Assembly: GCA_963804645.1 (NCBI GenBank)
Contig: CAWDRG010000017.1
Location: 794,276 to 858,275, forward strand
Length of the DNA stretch: 64,000 nucleotides
Origin: an uncultured Bacillota bacterium
GTDB lineage: Bacteria > Sysuimicrobiota > Sysuimicrobiia > Sysuimicrobiales > Segetimicrobiaceae
Direction of reading: 5' to 3'
The notes under the pieces were generated by a model. The model was given only the letters and a program-made list of their open reading frames with translations. It searched no databases and was not told the DNA's origin. Below are positions 57,214-63,946 of this stretch, piece after piece. The number at the start of each line of letters is the position of its first letter. The first letter of the stretch is position 1. A program made the position numbers and the translations under genes.

Positions 57214-58221
57214 ATGACGAACGGACGCGCATCCATGACTCGGCGCGAGCGGATCCAGGCGGTGCTCCGCGGCGAGGAACCCGATCGGCCCCCGATCAGC
57301 CTGTGGCGCCACTTCCCCGGAGAGGACGACACCGCGGCCAAACTGGCGGAGGCGACCGTCGCGTTTCAGCGGCGGTACGACTCGGACCTGGTCAAACTCA
57401 TGCCGACCGGCATGTACGCGGTGATCGACTACGGCGTCCGCGTCGTGCCGTCGGGCGACGCGATCGGGACGACGCGCTTCGCGTCAGGCCCGATCCACGA
57501 GCCGGGGGATTGGGAGCGGCTGCCGAAGGTCTCGCCGGCGGAGCGCACGCTCGGCGCCCAGGTCGACGCCGTCCGGCTGGTGCGCGCGGCGATCGGGCCC
57601 GACACGCCCCTCGTACAGACGATTTTCAGTCCGCTCACGATGGCGGTCAAGGTCGCCGGCGTGGTGGAGACCGTCGTCGACGCGGCCGAGCGGCACGAGG
57701 CGGCGCTCCACACGGCACTGTCTAAAATGGCCGAGGACGTCATCGCCTTCGGACGCAGGTGCCTGGACGCAGGCGCGGACGGCTTCTTTTTTGCGACGCA
57801 GCTCGCCGCCCGCGGTGCCGCGCCCCACGGCCTATACCGCCGCCTGGGCGTCCCGCACGATCTCCACGTCCTCCAGGCGCTGCGCGGCGGGGCTCGGTGC
57901 ATGATCCTGCACCTGCACGGCCTCGAGCCGATGTTCGAACTGGCGGACGAGTATCCCGTGGACGCGGTGAACTGGCACGACCGCGACACGTCCCCGTCGC
58001 TCGCCGACGCCAGGCGGCTGACCACGCGCGCGCTGGTGGCGGGCATCGCCAGGACCGGCGTGATCGCACACGGAAGTCCGGAGGAAGCCGCCGCCGAAGT
58101 CCGCGATGCGGTGCGCCAGACCGACGGCCGCGTCATCGTGGCGCCGGGGTGCGTCATCCCCTACCAGGCGCCGTCGGAGAATCTCCTCGCTGCCCGCCGC
58201 GCCGTGGGCTGCGCCCCCTGA
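57214..58221 (+). CDS. Uroporphyrinogen decarboxylase (URO-D)-fold family protein
   Basis: RERIQAVLRGE.PDRPP, QTIFSPLT, LHLHG, VAPGCVI. Confidence 0.85.
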   Translation: MTNGRASMTRRERIQAVLRGEEPDRPPISLWRHFPGEDDTAAKLAEATVAFQRRYDSDLVKLMPTGMYAVIDYGVRVVPSGDAIGTTRFASGPIHEPGDWERLPKVSPAERTLGAQVDAVRLVRAAIGPDTPLVQTIFSPLTMAVKVAGVVETVVDAAERHEAALHTALSKMAEDVIAFGRRCLDAGADGFFFATQLAARGAAPHGLYRRLGVPHDLHVLQALRGGARCMILHLHGLEPMFELADEYPVDAVNWHDRDTSPSLADARRLTTRALVAGIARTGVIAHGSPEEAAAEVRDAVRQTDGRVIVAPGCVIPYQAPSENLLAARRAVGCAP

Positions 58222-58256
58222 CGGAGACGCGACCGACGTGACGGCGTGATGACTCG

Positions 58257-58384
58257 TGTAGGCTGTCAGGATACCGTTCAGTAAGACCCCCCAGAAAATA
58301 AGGGATTTTGACCCCTCTGCCACGAGACCGTTCAGTCGTTTTGGCAAGATAACGTTCAGTTTTCCCGTCGAAGAGACGTTCGGT
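58257..58384 (+). mobile_element. Putative Tn7/Tn5053-like transposon end: terminal TGT plus four 19-bp transposase-binding repeats
   Basis: TGT at 58257; repeats at 58264, 58318, 58342 and 58366 sharing the core CGTTC(A/G)GT. Confidence 0.65.
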
Positions 58385-58599
58385 CACCGCTGGGCCCGAA
58401 GGTCCACACTCCCGACCTGCCGAACCCCGACCGCTACAGGGGACGTCTTGTCGTGGGGTCTGATATGAACGAGCCTGTCAAGTACCGTGTAGGTCAAGCC
58501 ACGAACGGCCCTCCGTCGTCCCAGAGGATGGACGGCGTATTCGGGTCCTGGAAGCGAAGCGTTCGCGACGGTGAATCACTCTGATATCGGTTATGAAAA

Positions 58600-58790
58600 G
58601 AGAGTGCCTCGTGCACGGCTGCGACGTAACGATAGAGGAGCCGGGCTCATGGGGCACGAGGGGACCACTAGCTAAGGGCAGGCCGTCGCGAATATGGACC
58701 ACGAGTCCGTTCTGATATCTGGCCGCCCCTGCGACTGACCCGGTTGCGCTGCGAGCGCGAATGCGTAGGTGTCGTGTTGCCCAGGCTGTG
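58600..58790 (+). ncRNA. Putative bridge RNA of the inner IS110
   Basis: 5' stem-loop, target loop (CGAATAT, TCTGATAT) and donor loop (ATGCGTA) matching the insertion site and the element ends. Confidence 0.72.
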
Positions 58791-58808
58791 TTCCAAAGGG
58801 GGGCTGAC

Positions 58809-60062
58809 ATGCGCGCGATAGGGCTTGACGTCCACAAGCACTTCGCTGAGAGTTGCCGTGCTTGAGCCCGGACGCAAGCGATTCGAGCACCTGCGAACGC
58901 ATCTCAGACGACGCCGGCGGCCCTGCGCAGCATTCGCTCAGCACGCTGCAATTCGACGGATCGCGTCGTACTGGAAGCCAGCATCAATACATGGCCGATC
59001 GCTGAATTGCTGCGCGCGCATGCCGGTCAAGTCATCGTCTCCAACCCAATGCGGACGCGGGCCATCGCGAGCGCCAAGATCAAGACCGATCGCGTGGATA
59101 GCGCGATTTTGGCACAATTGCTTGCCGCGGATTTCATCCCACCTGTGTGGGCACCAGATCCGGCGCCACGCAGACGCTCGCGCCATCAAGTGGCGAACCA
59201 TCAGTCGTTAGTCCAGCAGCGAACGCGATCTGCGGAATCGGATTCACGCCATTTTGGACCGTAACCTTGTTGCGACAGTCCTTCACGGACTTGTTCGGCA
59301 AGGCCGGCTCGTCGCGTGGTTGGCCGAGTGTGCTCGCTGCCGCGTCGAGGAGAAGCGATCAAGTCGATAGTATGCTCCGATTGCTCGACCGCCGTGGAAG
59401 CCGAGATCCAAGTGAGCCGAACAACGTATCGCCCAAGCCGCTCTTGCGGATCCGTCAGGTGACTGCGCTTGATGACCATCCCAGGAGTCGGCTTGACCAC
59501 GGCCGTCGCTCTCCTGGCTGTCATCGGGGATGTCACGCGGTTTCCGCGCCCAACGCACCTGGTCGGCTATCTTGGGCCTCGACCCACGGGTCCGCCAATC
59601 CGGTGAAACCGTCCAGCCTTATACAGGCCACATCAGTCGGCAAGGACAGGCGCACGCCCGTGGGCTGTTGGTGGAGGCCGCCCAGTGCTACAATTCGTGT
59701 GGCGGGGCCTCTGCGTGCATTCTACGAGCGTATGCAGTGGTCACCGCGGGAAAGCAGATCGCCGATCGTTGCGGTGGCGCGAAAATTGGCGGTGTTGGCC
59801 TGGCACTTGCTCGCCGATAAGAGCGAGTACCGCTGGACACCTCCGAGTCTCACGGCGCACAAGCACCGTCGAGGTCGAGCTGAAAGCAGGCGCGCCTCAC
59901 CAGCGCGGGCGATCGATCGTCGGCATTCGCACGCAACAGACATCCGACCAACGAGCAGACGTTAACGCCGCTGAGAACGACAAGCTTAAAAGAGGCGGAG
60001 GGACACTACCGAACGATGGTAGCGGCCCGCCGCGGCGAAGGGTGCAGCGGGAAAAGCCTTGA
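58809..60062 (+). pseudogene. IS110 transposase with many frameshifts (decay or read errors)
   Basis: MRAIGLDVHK, VVLEAS, KIKTDRVDS, IPGVG, RQSG..GHISRQG..LLVEAA, VAVARKLA spread over several frames. Confidence 0.85.
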
Positions 60063-60074
60063 CATTTTCATGCG

Positions 60075-60265
60075 TATTCGGCGGTTACCCGCACGAAGCG
60101 GGCAGAGCGCACATGATTGTGATTCGTCGGGAGCTGCCTCAATCTAGGAACGTGGGTCGGCACAGACGTCAGCCTGTCCGCCACATAGACCCCTCGAGGA
60201 TGCTCCTGACCGCTGCTTCGCCTCCAGGTCCAGAACACGTCCGTCGATCCTCGGAATCTGTTCCT
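60075..60265 (-). ncRNA. Putative bridge/seek RNA of the outer IS110 (5' part; continues at 58587-58560 beyond the inner IS)
   Basis: Target loop GGGGTCTA and CTAGA matches the empty site; donor-loop stem pairs across the inner element. Confidence 0.68.
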
Positions 60266-60271
60266 GGTACT

Positions 60272-61381
60272 CTACGCCGCGGTGGTGCTCGACACGCTAT
60301 GCGCGATTGCCCAGACGAATCCTGCCAACTCCCGCGCGACGGCGACGATCGCGACTGGCCGTGGCTTATTGCGCTGGGTCAGGCGCCAGTAGCGGCGGTG
60401 AAGCCGGTCCTGCGCACGGCGGGCGATCTGCACCACTGCCGCCGGACAGCCGTGGCGTCGTTTGGTGATCGTCGCGCCGCTGCTGTTGTGATGCGAGTAG
60501 CTCCAGGCCGCTTCGACCAGGACACGGCGGAGATGCGCGTTGCCGACTTTCGTAATAGAGCCGCGGCGGGTCCTGTCTCCGCTGCTGTTCTCGGAGCACA
60601 CCAAGCCGGTGAAGTCCATGTACGCGCGGGCGTGCCCAAAGCGCCGGAAGTCCTGTGTTTCGACAATCAGTGTGATCGCGGTCAGCGTGTCGACGCCTTT
60701 CAGACAGCGCAGGCCTTGCACAAGCGCCGCATAGCTCGGCCGTTGCGCCAGTTCGAGCACCTGGGTGGTCAAACTCGCCAACCGGGCGTCGGCTTCTTCG
60801 ACCCCGCGGAGATACGCATCAAACGTCTGCTGGGCCAACGTCAACTCAAACCGTTGCTGACGGAGCCACGCGTAATGCTTCTGACTCCACGCTTGCTTGC
60901 CATCGTACAGCCGTCCTTGACGAAGGAGAAATTTGCTCAGCCGATGTCGGGCGCGCAGCCGGTCGGCCACGGCGTCTTCGCGCGCACGGACGAGGTCTCT
61001 GGCCGCTTCCTCTTCCCCGGTGGGCACCCGAATTTCCGTGAGTTGCCCCGCGCGATAGAGTTGGGCCAAGTTCTCCGCGTCACGCCGATCCGTTTTGACC
61101 CGATCGCCGGGACGCACGGGCGTCAGGCCCGGGGCGATCACCGCCGCCTGGCAGCCCAGACGATACAACTGCCGGTGCAGCGTATATCCACACGGCCCCG
61201 CCTCGTACACAAACACCGCATTCCCGTTCTTCATGATCCGTTTCACCAAGCGCTCGACGGCCCGCGCGTCGTTCTCGATCGTGCACGTCTCCTGAGGCCG
61301 CGCAACGTTTGGCGGCAGGACCGCGGCCGTGATGCTCCCTTTGTGGACATCCAGACCAACCACTATGCTATGCTGATCCAT
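60272..61381 (-). CDS. IS110 family transposase (DEDD recombinase), intact
   Basis: VGLDVHK, VYEAGPCG, VKTDRRDA, LKGVD, ENSSG..RGSITKVGN..LVEAAW, AVARELAGFVW. Confidence 0.95.
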   Translation of the reverse strand: MDQHSIVVGLDVHKGSITAAVLPPNVARPQETCTIENDARAVERLVKRIMKNGNAVFVYEAGPCGYTLHRQLYRLGCQAAVIAPGLTPVRPGDRVKTDRRDAENLAQLYRAGQLTEIRVPTGEEEAARDLVRAREDAVADRLRARHRLSKFLLRQGRLYDGKQAWSQKHYAWLRQQRFELTLAQQTFDAYLRGVEEADARLASLTTQVLELAQRPSYAALVQGLRCLKGVDTLTAITLIVETQDFRRFGHARAYMDFTGLVCSENSSGDRTRRGSITKVGNAHLRRVLVEAAWSYSHHNSSGATITKRRHGCPAAVVQIARRAQDRLHRRYWRLTQRNKPRPVAIVAVARELAGFVWAIAHSVSSTTAA

Positions 61382-61471
61382 GAGCCGGCACCCCCGTATG
61401 TGGATAGGCCTCCGTCCTGGTGGCAACCCACGTATTACGCGGGTCGCCGGCTCGTTCATCTTATCTAGCGA

Positions 61472-63946
61472 ATGGCTCGTCGGCCGAAGAAGCGGGTCAC
61501 GAAGAGACCGGCTGCCCAGCGGCCGGCACGGGCTACCCGGCCGAAGAAGCGGCCTGCGAAGAAACCGGCTGCCAAGCGGCTCGCACAGCGTCCTCGTGAA
61601 CAAAGTCCTGTCGCACCGCCGCCTCGCCGGCAGCTTCACAACCTTCCAACCCAACTCACCAGCTTCATCGGGCGTGAGCGAGAGATCGTGGAGATCAAAC
61701 GACTCCTCGGCACCACGCGCTTGCTCACGTTGACCGGATCGGGCGGCGCGGGGAAGACGCGGCTCGCCCTCGAGGCAGCAGCTGATGTGCTCGACGTGTT
61801 TCCCGACGGGATTTGGGTGACGGAGTTAGCCTCGGTCACCGACCCGGCGTTGGTGCCTCGAGTCGTTGCGGCTGCTGTGGGGGTTCGTGATGAGTCCGGG
61901 CGGCCCGTGGCCGATGTTCTCACCGGCTATCTGCAGTCGAAGCACATGCTCTTGGTGTTGGACAACTGCGAGCACCTCATCGAGGCGTGCGCTCAACTGG
62001 TCGATGCTCTCCTGCGGGCGTGTCCTTCCGTGCGCATCTTGGCGACGAGCCGGGCAGCGCTCAACATTCCCGGCGAAACGGTGTCGCGGGTGCCGTCACT
62101 TTCCCTTCCGGATCCCACGGCCCTCCCGCCCGTTGACCAACTCCTCGGCTACGAAGCCGTCCGGTTGTTCGTCGAGCGTGCCGCCGCAGCGTTCTCAACC
62201 TTCGCCCTCACGGACCAGAATGCACCCGCGGTCGTCCAGATCTGCCGGAGGCTCGACGGGATGCCGTTGGCGATCGAGCTGGCCGCCGCGCGCGTGAAGG
62301 AACTGACGCCGGAGGAGATTGCGACGCGGTTAGGTGATAGCTTCCGGCTTTTCATCAAAGGTAGCCGGATAGCGATTCCGAGACACCGAACACTGCGCGC
62401 CGTCATTGATTGGAGTTACGATCTCTTGTCGGCGTCCGAGCGAGCCGTGTTGCAGCGGTTGTCGGTTTTTGCGGGCGGTTGGACGCTAGAGGCCGCGCAG
62501 GCGATCTGCGCGGGAGATGGCGTGGAGGCAGCCGAGGTCTTCGAGCTCGTGCTCGGCCTCGTGGCCAGTTCGTTGGTCGAGCGTGCTACGCAAGGGCGTT
62601 ATGGGTTGCTGGAAACGGTGCGCCAGTACAGCTGGGAGCGACTGCAGGAGACGGGGCAGGCCGACGAAGTACGCCGGCGGCATCGCGATTGGTACCTGGA
62701 CCTGGCAGAGCGCGCAGATCCACGATTGCGGGGTCCCGAGCAAATTACGTGGTTTGAGCGGCTGGAGGCGGAACACGATAACCTGCGGGTAGCCCTGACC
62801 TACAGTATGGCCGATGCAGGCGGCGCGGAGGACACTCTACGGCTCGCGGGCGCATTGACTTGGTTTTGGTTCATCCATGGACATTGGAGCGAGGGGCGAA
62901 CCTGGCTGGAAGGAGCGTTAACGCGAGAACATGCGGCACCGCGCGCTATACGTCCCACGGGCATCAGCGGCGCCGCGTGTTTCGCCTGGCGGCAAGGCGA
63001 CTCTGCCCGCGCTACGCAACTCGGGGAGCGGGGGTTGGCACTCTGCCGTGCGCTGGACGATAAGGTGAACAGCGTTTGGATGTTGATGTGGTTGGGAATC
63101 GTGGCCCTACGGCAGATGCAGCGTGCGCGGGCGGAGGAACTGATTGAGGAAGGTGTCGCGCTGTCTCGGGAGATCGGGGATGACTGGGTTTTGGGTCTGA
63201 TGTTGGCTCAACTCGGGATCCAGGCTCGCACCCTGCGCGAATACGACCGGGCGGTGTCGATTCACACTGAGTGCCTGTCCCTGGCTAGAAAGACAGGGGA
63301 CGCATTTGCCACCGCGTATCAGCTTCGCAATCTCGCAGTAGATAGCTTTGAAAGCGAACAATACGATCGGGCGGCTGGCCACTATCTGGACAGCTTACGC
63401 CAGATCCGCCGCATCGCGGATCGGTGGATCACAGGCGAGTGCATCGACGGGTTGGCGGCCATCGCCAGCATCCGTGGGCATCACGGCACGGCGGCCCAGT
63501 TGTTTGGGGTCGGTGAGACCTTGCGGGCACTCACGGGTCATTTTCGCCCCAACGCCTCGCGTGTTCATTACGACCCCTATGTGGCCGCGACCCGAGGTGC
63601 GCTTGGCGCACAAGAGTTCAGCCGGCTGTGGAACGAGGGCGGTGCGATGCCGCTCGATGCGGGGGTCGACTTCGCGCTTGCCACACCGGACGTGCCCGCC
63701 GATGCAGCGGTGCGGGCCCGAGCGGCCGGAGACCCGAGCCCGCTCGCCTCTCGAGAACGCGAAGTCGCCATCCTGGTCGCGCAGGGCCTGTCCAACCGCG
63801 ACATTGCGACCCGTCTCGTCATCTCGGAGCGTACGGCGCAGAAGCACGTGCAGCACATCCTCAACAAATTGGGGTTCTCTTCTCGCGCCCGAATCGCCAC
63901 GTGGGTCGTGCAACGTGGGCTCCTTCCACCCTCTGAATCCCCGTAG
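61472..63946 (+). CDS. ATPase (STAND)-TPR-LuxR HTH transcriptional regulator
   Basis: LTSFIGRERE, GSGGAGKT, LVLDNCEH, LDGMPLAIELAAAR, TPRs, C-terminal REREVA..GLSNRDIA..KLG. Confidence 0.93.
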   Translation: MARRPKKRVTKRPAAQRPARATRPKKRPAKKPAAKRLAQRPREQSPVAPPPRRQLHNLPTQLTSFIGREREIVEIKRLLGTTRLLTLTGSGGAGKTRLALEAAADVLDVFPDGIWVTELASVTDPALVPRVVAAAVGVRDESGRPVADVLTGYLQSKHMLLVLDNCEHLIEACAQLVDALLRACPSVRILATSRAALNIPGETVSRVPSLSLPDPTALPPVDQLLGYEAVRLFVERAAAAFSTFALTDQNAPAVVQICRRLDGMPLAIELAAARVKELTPEEIATRLGDSFRLFIKGSRIAIPRHRTLRAVIDWSYDLLSASERAVLQRLSVFAGGWTLEAAQAICAGDGVEAAEVFELVLGLVASSLVERATQGRYGLLETVRQYSWERLQETGQADEVRRRHRDWYLDLAERADPRLRGPEQITWFERLEAEHDNLRVALTYSMADAGGAEDTLRLAGALTWFWFIHGHWSEGRTWLEGALTREHAAPRAIRPTGISGAACFAWRQGDSARATQLGERGLALCRALDDKVNSVWMLMWLGIVALRQMQRARAEELIEEGVALSREIGDDWVLGLMLAQLGIQARTLREYDRAVSIHTECLSLARKTGDAFATAYQLRNLAVDSFESEQYDRAAGHYLDSLRQIRRIADRWITGECIDGLAAIASIRGHHGTAAQLFGVGETLRALTGHFRPNASRVHYDPYVAATRGALGAQEFSRLWNEGGAMPLDAGVDFALATPDVPADAAVRARAAGDPSPLASREREVAILVAQGLSNRDIATRLVISERTAQKHVQHILNKLGFSSRARIATWVVQRGLLPPSESP
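61481..61590 (+). repeat. Two imperfect 57-bp tandem repeats encoding the basic N-terminus
   Basis: CGGCCGAAGAAGCGG...ACCGGCTGCC at 61481 and 61538. Confidence 0.75.

Follow-up and report, generated by a model that had tools for sequence, protein, structure and literature searches.

A probable bridge RNA with reversed guide order at the left end of an IS110-family element nested in an IS1111-like element

How does one insertion sequence come to lie inside another, and does its non-coding end encode the choice of site? The window (the whole 64,000-nucleotide stretch of DNA analysed here) raises this question, as it holds two nested IS110-family elements, an inner one on the plus strand inside an outer one on the minus strand. 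Bridge RNAs were described for the element IS621 (Durrant 2024, PMC11208160; Hiraizumi et al. 2024, PMC11208158), and an earlier note on this DNA, made from the sequence alone, had proposed such an RNA for the inner element. We find that positions 58588–58809 are very probably the left end of an IS110-family insertion sequence that encodes a bridge RNA of about 190 nt on the plus strand. Every motif coordinate in the earlier note proved correct when the sequence was re-read.

The inner element (58587–60076, plus strand) has boundaries that are ambiguous within a TAT common to both junctions (58585–58587 and 60075–60077). An uninterrupted copy of the outer element on contig C16 proves a 1,490-bp insertion at TCTGA-TA-TTCGG: there, the sequence of window positions 58457–58587 abuts that of 60075–60300 at 100% identity, with a 3-nt overlap, TAT. 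The 1,490 nt between 58584 and 60075 are also skipped by contigs of two public runs (X15 and X1). Left of the element stand the left target half and core, TCTGA-TA-T (58580–58587, plus strand), and on its right a copy of the core (TA) is followed by the right target half, T-TCGGCG (60075–60083, plus strand); a TA core is consistent with both junctions. The exact 12-mer TCTGATATTCGG has a single occurrence in the 5.3-Mb genome, which is the empty site on C16; six one-mismatch versions of it exist in the genome and all are unoccupied. The inner element carries a 7-bp subterminal inverted repeat, ATGAAAA on the left (58593–58599, plus strand) pairing with its reverse complement TTTTCAT on the right (60065–60071, plus strand). 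Across homologues this repeat measures 6–7 bp; an ATGA-type motif was found at the left-repeat distance in 80 of 95 unique homologue records (the 80 including contigs that end before the left flank), and TTGAC...TCAT is present downstream of the recombinase gene in 60 of 79 loci.

The insertion lies in an IS1111-like host element spanning about 58464–61468 on the minus strand, with 11-bp subterminal repeats (ATGAACGAGCC) at 61459–61449 and 58466–58476. Its recombinase gene, which runs from 61372 to 60272 on the minus strand, is intact and encodes 366 amino acids with the domains PF01548 and PF02371. The element has a short left end and a right non-coding end of roughly 320 nt, which the inner element interrupts; this layout of the ends, together with the 11-bp repeats, is IS1111 style. 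The genome holds six copies of the outer element that are 99.9–100% identical (for the further copies we obtained four complete junction sets and one partial set), and five of the six are occupied by an inner element. The inner elements comprise three variants, namely the window copy, that on C21 (91%) and that shared by C19 and C6 (81%; the C19 and C6 copies are mutually identical), which are 81–91% identical to one another. All three sit at the same position and in the same orientation, and the left flank of the inner element is identical in all filled outer copies. Three diverged variants at one position and orientation in near-identical host copies imply at least three independent insertions at one site. 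This repeated use of a single site in a single orientation, which we observed directly, bears out the proposal of the earlier note that the insertion was programmed rather than accidental. Among the three variants, the segment 58676–58775 is almost invariant, and the gene differs by up to 19%.

This near-invariant segment belongs to the left non-coding end of the inner element, which comprises 222 nt (58588–58809). At its 5' side lies a long irregular hairpin (58604–58668, plus strand), which is the minimum-free-energy fold in all 22 homologue left ends that were folded singly. Its register is ambiguous between 58607–58614/58654–58661 and 58604–58613/58648–58657. The former, CCTCGTGC with GCACGAGG, is the 5' stem of the earlier note, and the sequences are indeed present there; this register is confined to the window-type subfamily and is not conserved. 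The competing pairing, GUGCCUCGUG with CAUGGGGCAC, is the one that matches a GGGGC motif conserved in relatives. Next comes a target-binding loop (58676–58728, plus strand), closed by an outer stem of GGGC-A-GGCC (58676–58684) and GGCC-GCCC (58721–58728). Within it, a 5' guide strand (58685–58695, holding CGAATAT at 58689–58695) and a 3' guide strand (58709–58720, holding TCTGATAT at 58711–58718) flank a GGAC/GTCC hairpin (58696–58708). A donor-binding loop follows (58731–58775, plus strand), with an outer stem of GCGAC (58731–58735) and GTCGT (58771–58775), a 5' guide strand (58736–58745), a hairpin of GCGCT (58746–58750) and AGCGC (58754–58758; the whole hairpin spans 58746–58758) and a 3' guide strand (58759–58770) that holds ATGCGTA at 58761–58767.

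We collected homologues of the element with two queries. The intact protein from C19 (P0001, 401 aa) yielded 28 loci from species genomes, and an eight-protein alignment yielded relatives from metagenomes, of which the best 80 of 521 were used. RNAalifold, applied to 22 homologue left ends, independently returned the same four helices, the outer stem and the hairpin of both loops. When 16 sequences were aligned on the structure of the earlier note, 96.3% of cells were paired, as against 38.5–49.1% when the partners were slid by 1–3 columns, and none of 500 shuffles reached either the observed paired percentage or the observed covariation score. Among the 72 distinct sequences of a 79-row alignment, 97.1% of cells were paired and four pairs showed compensatory change, one of them occurring as UA in 28 sequences, CG in 23, AU in 15 and GC in 5; this alignment was fitted to the covariance model and so leans towards the structure. 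Over both alignments, the slid-partner control gave 36–49% of cells paired. The stems of the target loop were 98.9–100% paired. The number of pairs with two-sided change (three in the 16-sequence alignment) is not significant on its own, being matched in 67 of 500 shuffles and, for the 72-sequence set, in 139 of 500, since the stems are mostly invariant. Variability by column was highest in the target-loop strands (1.05 and 1.37 bits), and came to 0.54–0.57 bits in the donor-loop strands, 0.46–0.68 bits in the stems of the inner hairpins and 0.04–0.13 bits in the outer stems.

A covariance model built from the 16-sequence alignment matched 79 of 87 further sources (contig ends truncate two of these matches) and 26 of 28 sources, always upstream of the recombinase gene and on the strand of the gene, and it matched the window exactly once, at 58670–58788. 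In contrast to this conservation of the fold, which is a direct observation, the minimum-free-energy fold was no better than that of shuffled sequences, the z-score being +0.85 over the whole region and −0.77 over the two loops. Thus, of the two structural checks proposed in the earlier note, a covariance model and RNAfold, the former supports the structure and the folding energy does not; the support is comparative, not thermodynamic. A scan of 57500–62500 with Rfam 15 at E values of up to 10 found nothing relevant, only four chance hits far below their gathering scores.

Could this conserved region work at the DNA level, or simply be a 5' untranslated leader, with the matches to the flanks arising as by-products of a site preference? 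Contigs of three metatranscriptome runs included none over 58588–60074, a result from contigs that cannot show absence (those of runs X15 and X16 touch the outer element only, and run X21 gave none; four of 24 runs were used in all), and this missing transcript and the unremarkable folding energy are what such an account can draw on. Against it stand the G-U pairs at three stem positions: in the complementary strand, or in DNA sites with duplex symmetry, these would become A-C mismatches, and they fix the transcribed strand as plus. The compensatory changes in the hairpins, the joint change of loop strands and flanks across lineages (described below) and the close functional precedent of IS621 also speak against it, and we regard it as very improbable.

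We therefore read the region as an RNA, and asked what its loop strands match. The 3' strand of the first loop (58711–58718) is identical to the left target half and core over 8 nt, and the ATATTCG of the empty site is the reverse complement of 58689–58695 in the 5' strand, a 7-nt match; one relative (L015), with an additional C, matches over 10 nt. ATGCGTA in the second loop is identical to the right end of the element (60070–60076). Taken singly, such matches are not all rare: when the non-coding region was shuffled 5,000 times, the 8-nt left-flank match arose in 21 shuffles, the 7-nt right-flank match in 395 and the 7-nt right-end match in 168. The last two counts, like the fold z-scores of +0.85 and −0.77, would suit an explanation in which a G+C-rich sequence has produced matches and hairpins by chance. 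That explanation has a negligible probability in our view: all three exact matches occurred together in none of the 5,000 shuffles, and the structure and the relation of guide to flank recur in about 100 homologues.

This recurrence was measured as follows. Removing two partial matches from 105 model matches left 103 records, which gave 95 unique combinations of guides and flanks; the left flank could be anchored in 80 of these and the right flank in 64. Anchoring relied on the subterminal repeat and not on the guides, and a few visibly wrong anchors were kept. As the measure of association we took the mean longest exact match of cognate and of non-cognate guide-flank pairs, with 2,000 permutations per comparison; as the sequences are related, permutation counts show association and not the number or probability of independent events. 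The 3' strand of the target loop matched its own left flank over 5.47 nt on average, against 3.77 nt for non-cognate flanks (at least 7 nt in 22 of 80), and the reverse complement of the 5' strand matched its own right flank over 6.23 nt, against 4.02 nt (at least 7 nt in 24 of 64). None of 2,000 permutations reached the observed value in either flank test. Guide-target covariation across orthologues, a check that the earlier note had named beforehand, was thus found, as was the match of the target-loop strands to opposite strands of the empty site that the same note had described.

Individual loci give examples of natural retargeting. TGGTGTAT stands in both guide and flank of L041 and L058, and corresponding sequences differ between L016 (TCGCGCATT), L021 (TCGCGCAAA), L042 (TCGATCAAA) and the pair L037 and L038 (TCGTCCAA); in L085 the guide-flank match extends to 11 nt. 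Many left-guide matches in a T-rich clade require G-U wobbles. The fit is weak in L059 and L061, and in L035 the 5' target guide does not match its own right flank, which would fit a guide of the L037/L038 type; the L035 element may have been mobilized by the RNA of a relative in trans. For a copy on a Rhodococcus pyridinivorans plasmid, in which the RNA was found (97.5 bits), the left flank agrees at six of seven positions and the right flank does not match. We also noted two local duplications: the right end and flank occur three times in tandem with 119-nt spacing at L110:2518–2790, and the start of the left end is duplicated, 44 nt apart, upstream of L053:861.

The second loop follows the ends of the element in the same way. 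Its 3' strand matched the cognate right end over 7.33 nt, against 4.79 nt for non-cognate ends, with at least 7 nt in 52 of 57 distinct donor combinations. Its 5' strand matched the start of the cognate left end over 3.94 nt, against 3.38 nt, a weaker association of short, interrupted matches, none of which reached 7 nt; the observed value was reached in none of 2,000 permutations for either strand. In the left-end guide the covariation lies in the final five positions, which read GGGCA, GGACA, GGATA, AAGCA or TGGCA. As the earlier note had it, the donor-loop strands match the element ends, exactly over 7 nt on the right and less strongly and with an interruption on the left, and both matches, which we observed directly together with those of the target loop, track across homologues.

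These data bear on the possibility that the functional RNA is a short product of seekRNA type, about 70–100 nt long and containing the target loop only, the second loop serving, for example, recombinase binding or processing. In IS1111 elements and in ISEc21, the abundant and sufficient RNA is reported to be a short species with two target matches (Siddiquee et al. 2024, PMC11187229), and the guide order of the RNA described here is of the IS1111 kind. In this family, however, the strands of the second loop track the ends of the element, at the right end over at least 7 nt in 52 of 57 combinations and at the left end through covarying five-mers, which is the defining behaviour of a donor-binding loop. 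We consider a target-loop-only RNA improbable as the functional form, and the two readings are compatible with each other. That the loop strands follow their own flanks and element ends across homologues identifies the RNA as a genuine bridge RNA of the IS110 family.

The two strands of each loop read the DNA in a fixed order. In each loop the 5' strand complements the top strand on the right (the right target or the start of the left end), and the 3' strand repeats the top-strand sequence on the left (the left target or the right end) and thus pairs with the bottom strand. In IS621 the order is the opposite, as judged from the published guide track and bridge RNA table on which our comparison rests (Durrant 2024, PMC11208160): the 5' strand reproduces the top strand of the left target and the 3' strand complements the right target. 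The supplementary design template there places the left target guide (LTG) at 49–58 and the right target guide (RTG) at 73–80, and a listed bridge RNA contains the left half of the target and the core verbatim, 5' of the complement of the core and right half. When we scored the same homologue data in the IS621 order, cognate and non-cognate matches were indistinguishable (3.64 versus 3.64 and 3.44 versus 3.45), with 1,156 and 1,189 of 2,000 permutations reaching the observed values; controls with the donor-loop strands swapped were also null. The three-part layout of IS621 type proposed in the earlier note thus holds for the fold of hairpin, target loop and donor loop, as found by RNAalifold and the covariance model, and fails for polarity.

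The guide order of other family members is reported in Siddiquee et al. 2024 (PMC11187229) and in the table of a 2026 review: in ISEc21, an element of IS110 type, the top-strand match lies 3' of the bottom-strand match, whereas in IS1111 members it lies 5' of it. The review table accordingly lists IS110 elements with an upstream RNA read bottom-then-top and IS1111 elements with a downstream RNA read top-then-bottom. The guide order of the window RNA is the reverse of that of IS621 and ISEc21 and the same as IS1111 seekRNAs are reported to have. From the viewpoint of the RNA, the complex may not differ from that of IS621, and the donor site would then be inverted with respect to the genes.

Apart from polarity, the resemblance to IS621 is close. 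In both, the RNA is encoded in a long left end upstream of a recombinase with DEDD and Tnp domains; a 5' hairpin precedes the target loop and then the donor loop; every loop strand has the core on its 3' side, and the two strands of a loop read DNA strands that are opposite; conservation is greater in the second loop than in the variable first one; from the right end, a −35 box (putative in the window) faces the junction; and the guide for the start of the left end pairs discontinuously, as does the RDG of IS621. The differences are that IS621 assigns the left target and the right end (bottom strand) to its 5' strands, and the right target and the left end to its 3' strands, an arrangement that is reversed in the window family; that the core is CT in IS621, and TA in the window family with TC in a sister clade; that the subterminal inverted repeat is 2–3 bp in IS621 and 6–7 bp here; and that the proteins are only distantly related (phmmer E = 1e-18). 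With ISEc21, as reported in PMC11187229, the RNA shares its upstream non-coding position and two short matches to opposite target strands, but the match to the top strand lies 3' in ISEc21 and 5' in the window RNA.

With the IS1111 seekRNAs of ISEc11, ISKpn4 and ISPa11 (as given in PMC11187229), the RNA has in common the order of its guides, the segment complementary to the top strand lying 5' of that complementary to the bottom strand. Subterminal repeats of 7 bp or more are a further likeness, and ATGAA is common to the inner and the IS1111-like outer element. According to the account in Durrant 2024 (PMC11208160), these repeats measure 7–17 bp in the IS1111 group and 2–3 bp in the IS110 group, so that the 7-bp repeat of the window is at the lower limit of the IS1111 range. 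Unlike in IS1111 elements, the RNA of the window family lies upstream of the recombinase gene and not downstream of it, and the right end is short, the C19 reading frame stopping 14 nt before it; the nucleotides that read the donor lie in a simple internal loop and not in the multi-loop that Durrant et al. report for many IS1111 members. We found no description of an RNA that combines an upstream position, top-then-bottom order and an intermediate repeat, and survey catalogues may include the family. One member of it is in the 1,054-protein table of Durrant, listed there (row 79) without an ISfinder name, and in a 2026 preprint 32,190 bridge RNAs are modelled by means of 86 covariance models, its section 2.4 being silent on polarity. 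The RNA is a genuine bridge RNA of a known kind, and in polarity and repeat length it is a variant that is absent from current summaries.

The recombinase gene of the inner element (58810–60010, plus strand) is unreadable as assembled. Compared with the C21 copy, the window copy has 67 substitutions and 49 indel events, all of which are extra bases in the window (63 nt in total) with none missing; in the coding part, 40 of 41 events are not multiples of three. These counts come from a pairwise global alignment with the C21 copy (tblastn was uninformative, and a three-way column count was muddled by gaps). No extra base lies within 58676–58775 and six fall in other parts of the non-coding end; a metagenome contig of 1,046 nt is free of the extra bases of the window copy. 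This one-sided, insertion-only pattern (58810–60057) looks more like a consensus, assembly or polishing artefact than decay. If the damage is real, the window copy could be moved only by the recombinase of its intact sisters, which have the same guides and ends. Intact frames of 398–401 amino acids are present on C21, C19 and C6. The earlier note had seen in the element a candidate programmable recombinase with a TA-type core; the core agrees with both junctions, and the window copy is not itself such a candidate, as the assembled sequence breaks its reading frame about 40 times.

The intact sister protein contains PF01548 and PF02371 and matches the NCBIfam model NF033542, 'IS110 family RNA-guided transposase', at 244 bits, a single model that covers the inner, outer, ISCro4 and IS621 recombinases. 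It is related to the recombinases of ISCro4 and IS621 (E = 3e-21 and 1e-18). In bit scores, P0001 reaches about 70 to IS621, 79 to ISCro4 and 69 to the IS1111-like outer recombinase, which itself scores only about 27 bits to IS621. As similarity scores and not a phylogeny, these values suggest a position intermediate between the IS110 and IS1111 groups. In the eight-protein alignment D7, E53, D91, D94 and S256 are invariant, and the motifs that hold them align to ISCro4; we take these to be the catalytic DEDD residues and serine.

By homology to IS621 we infer how the parts might work, as regards transcription from a junction promoter, protein binding and chemistry. Excision would join the right end to the left end. 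This would complete a putative promoter composed of a −35 box, TTGACA (60059–60064, plus strand; TTGAC is conserved in relatives), and a −10 box, TATGAA (58592–58597, plus strand), which in the circle are 17 nt apart, a spacing that was counted by hand. The RNA and the gene would be transcribed from this junction, and the RNA would fold and bind the DEDD/Ser recombinase. The target loop would hold TCTGA-TA-TTCGG, in the 3' non-coding region of an IS1111-like element: its 3' strand, UCUGAUAU, which has the sequence of the left target and core, would pair with the bottom strand, and its 5' strand, CGAAUAU, with the complementary top strand of the core and right target. The donor loop would hold the RE-LE junction of the circularized element, ATGCG-TA-TCGGTTA, through its 3' strand AUGCGUA, which has the sequence of the element right end and core, and its 5' strand UGACCCGGU, which is predicted to pair with the top strand over the core and left-end start, with wobbles and one bulge or mismatch. 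Strand exchange would then take place at the TA core.

The surroundings of the nested elements yielded several further observations. TCTGATAT, the left-target 8-mer of the inner element (58580–58587), recurs at the junction between the outer element's end and its flank (58459–58466), and the target of the inner element may be part of a guide segment in the RNA of the outer element, where it could not be changed freely. In a peat metatranscriptome library, a 207-nt contig joins 58457–58584 to 60075–60148 and so represents an uninterrupted outer non-coding end; it hints at transcription of that end, with DNA carry-over as another possible source. Immediately left of the outer element, four spaced motifs resembling ACCGTTCAG lie at 58262–58385, in a sequence that is repeated in the genome (C17:624339–624549, C2, C9 and C22) and represents the target family of the outer element; the same interval gave a weak, sub-threshold Rfam hit to CRISPR-DR8 (19 bits against a gathering score of 39). 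In three other outer copies, at C6:106106–106376, C19:112825–113110 and C21:4885–7913, about 40 nt of the outer left end (query 1356–1397) reappear past a break, at distances of about 230 bp, about 250 bp and about 3 kb, respectively, the first roughly 10 nt overlapping the main match at its end. A further insertion close to that end, absent from the window copy, is suggested by this pattern. At the start of contig C21 (1–4885), two composite copies of outer and inner element stand in tandem, 53 bp apart. A second, more distant homologue of the inner element is present in the genome at C19:49088–50213 (L008; covariance-model hit of 104 bits), with guides of its own (target-loop 3' strand GAACCTTTATTT) and a site of its own (flank ...GACCCTTAT).

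Among programmable systems that rearrange DNA, bridge and seek RNAs form the newest class, and an upstream RNA with top-then-bottom order breaks the link between family and guide order that current summaries draw. It provides a natural test of whether polarity is mechanistically important or merely reflects the orientation of the donor site in the circle, and it bears on how the IS110 and IS1111 groups diverged. In practical terms, tools derived from IS621 would mis-assign the left and right guides of such orthologues. Taken jointly, the data allow a tentative reading, which we hold to be possible though somewhat short of probable, in which an Actinomycetota-centred family represents a third layout of RNA-guided DEDD transposons and, in this genome, is hyperparasitic on an IS1111-like element. 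Such a layout would unite the RNA position and the two-internal-loop fold of IS110 with the polarity of IS1111 and a subterminal repeat of intermediate length, which is how an intermediate between the two groups would be expected to look. As a hyperparasite, the element would have as its only target the guide-RNA region of the IS1111-like element, in the segment that holds TCTGATAT; as that 8-mer recurs where the host's own end meets its flank, the host element may have no way of mutating the site that would not cost it its own mobility. The nesting, in which three diverged variants fill five of the six host copies, shows one RNA-guided element specializing on another.
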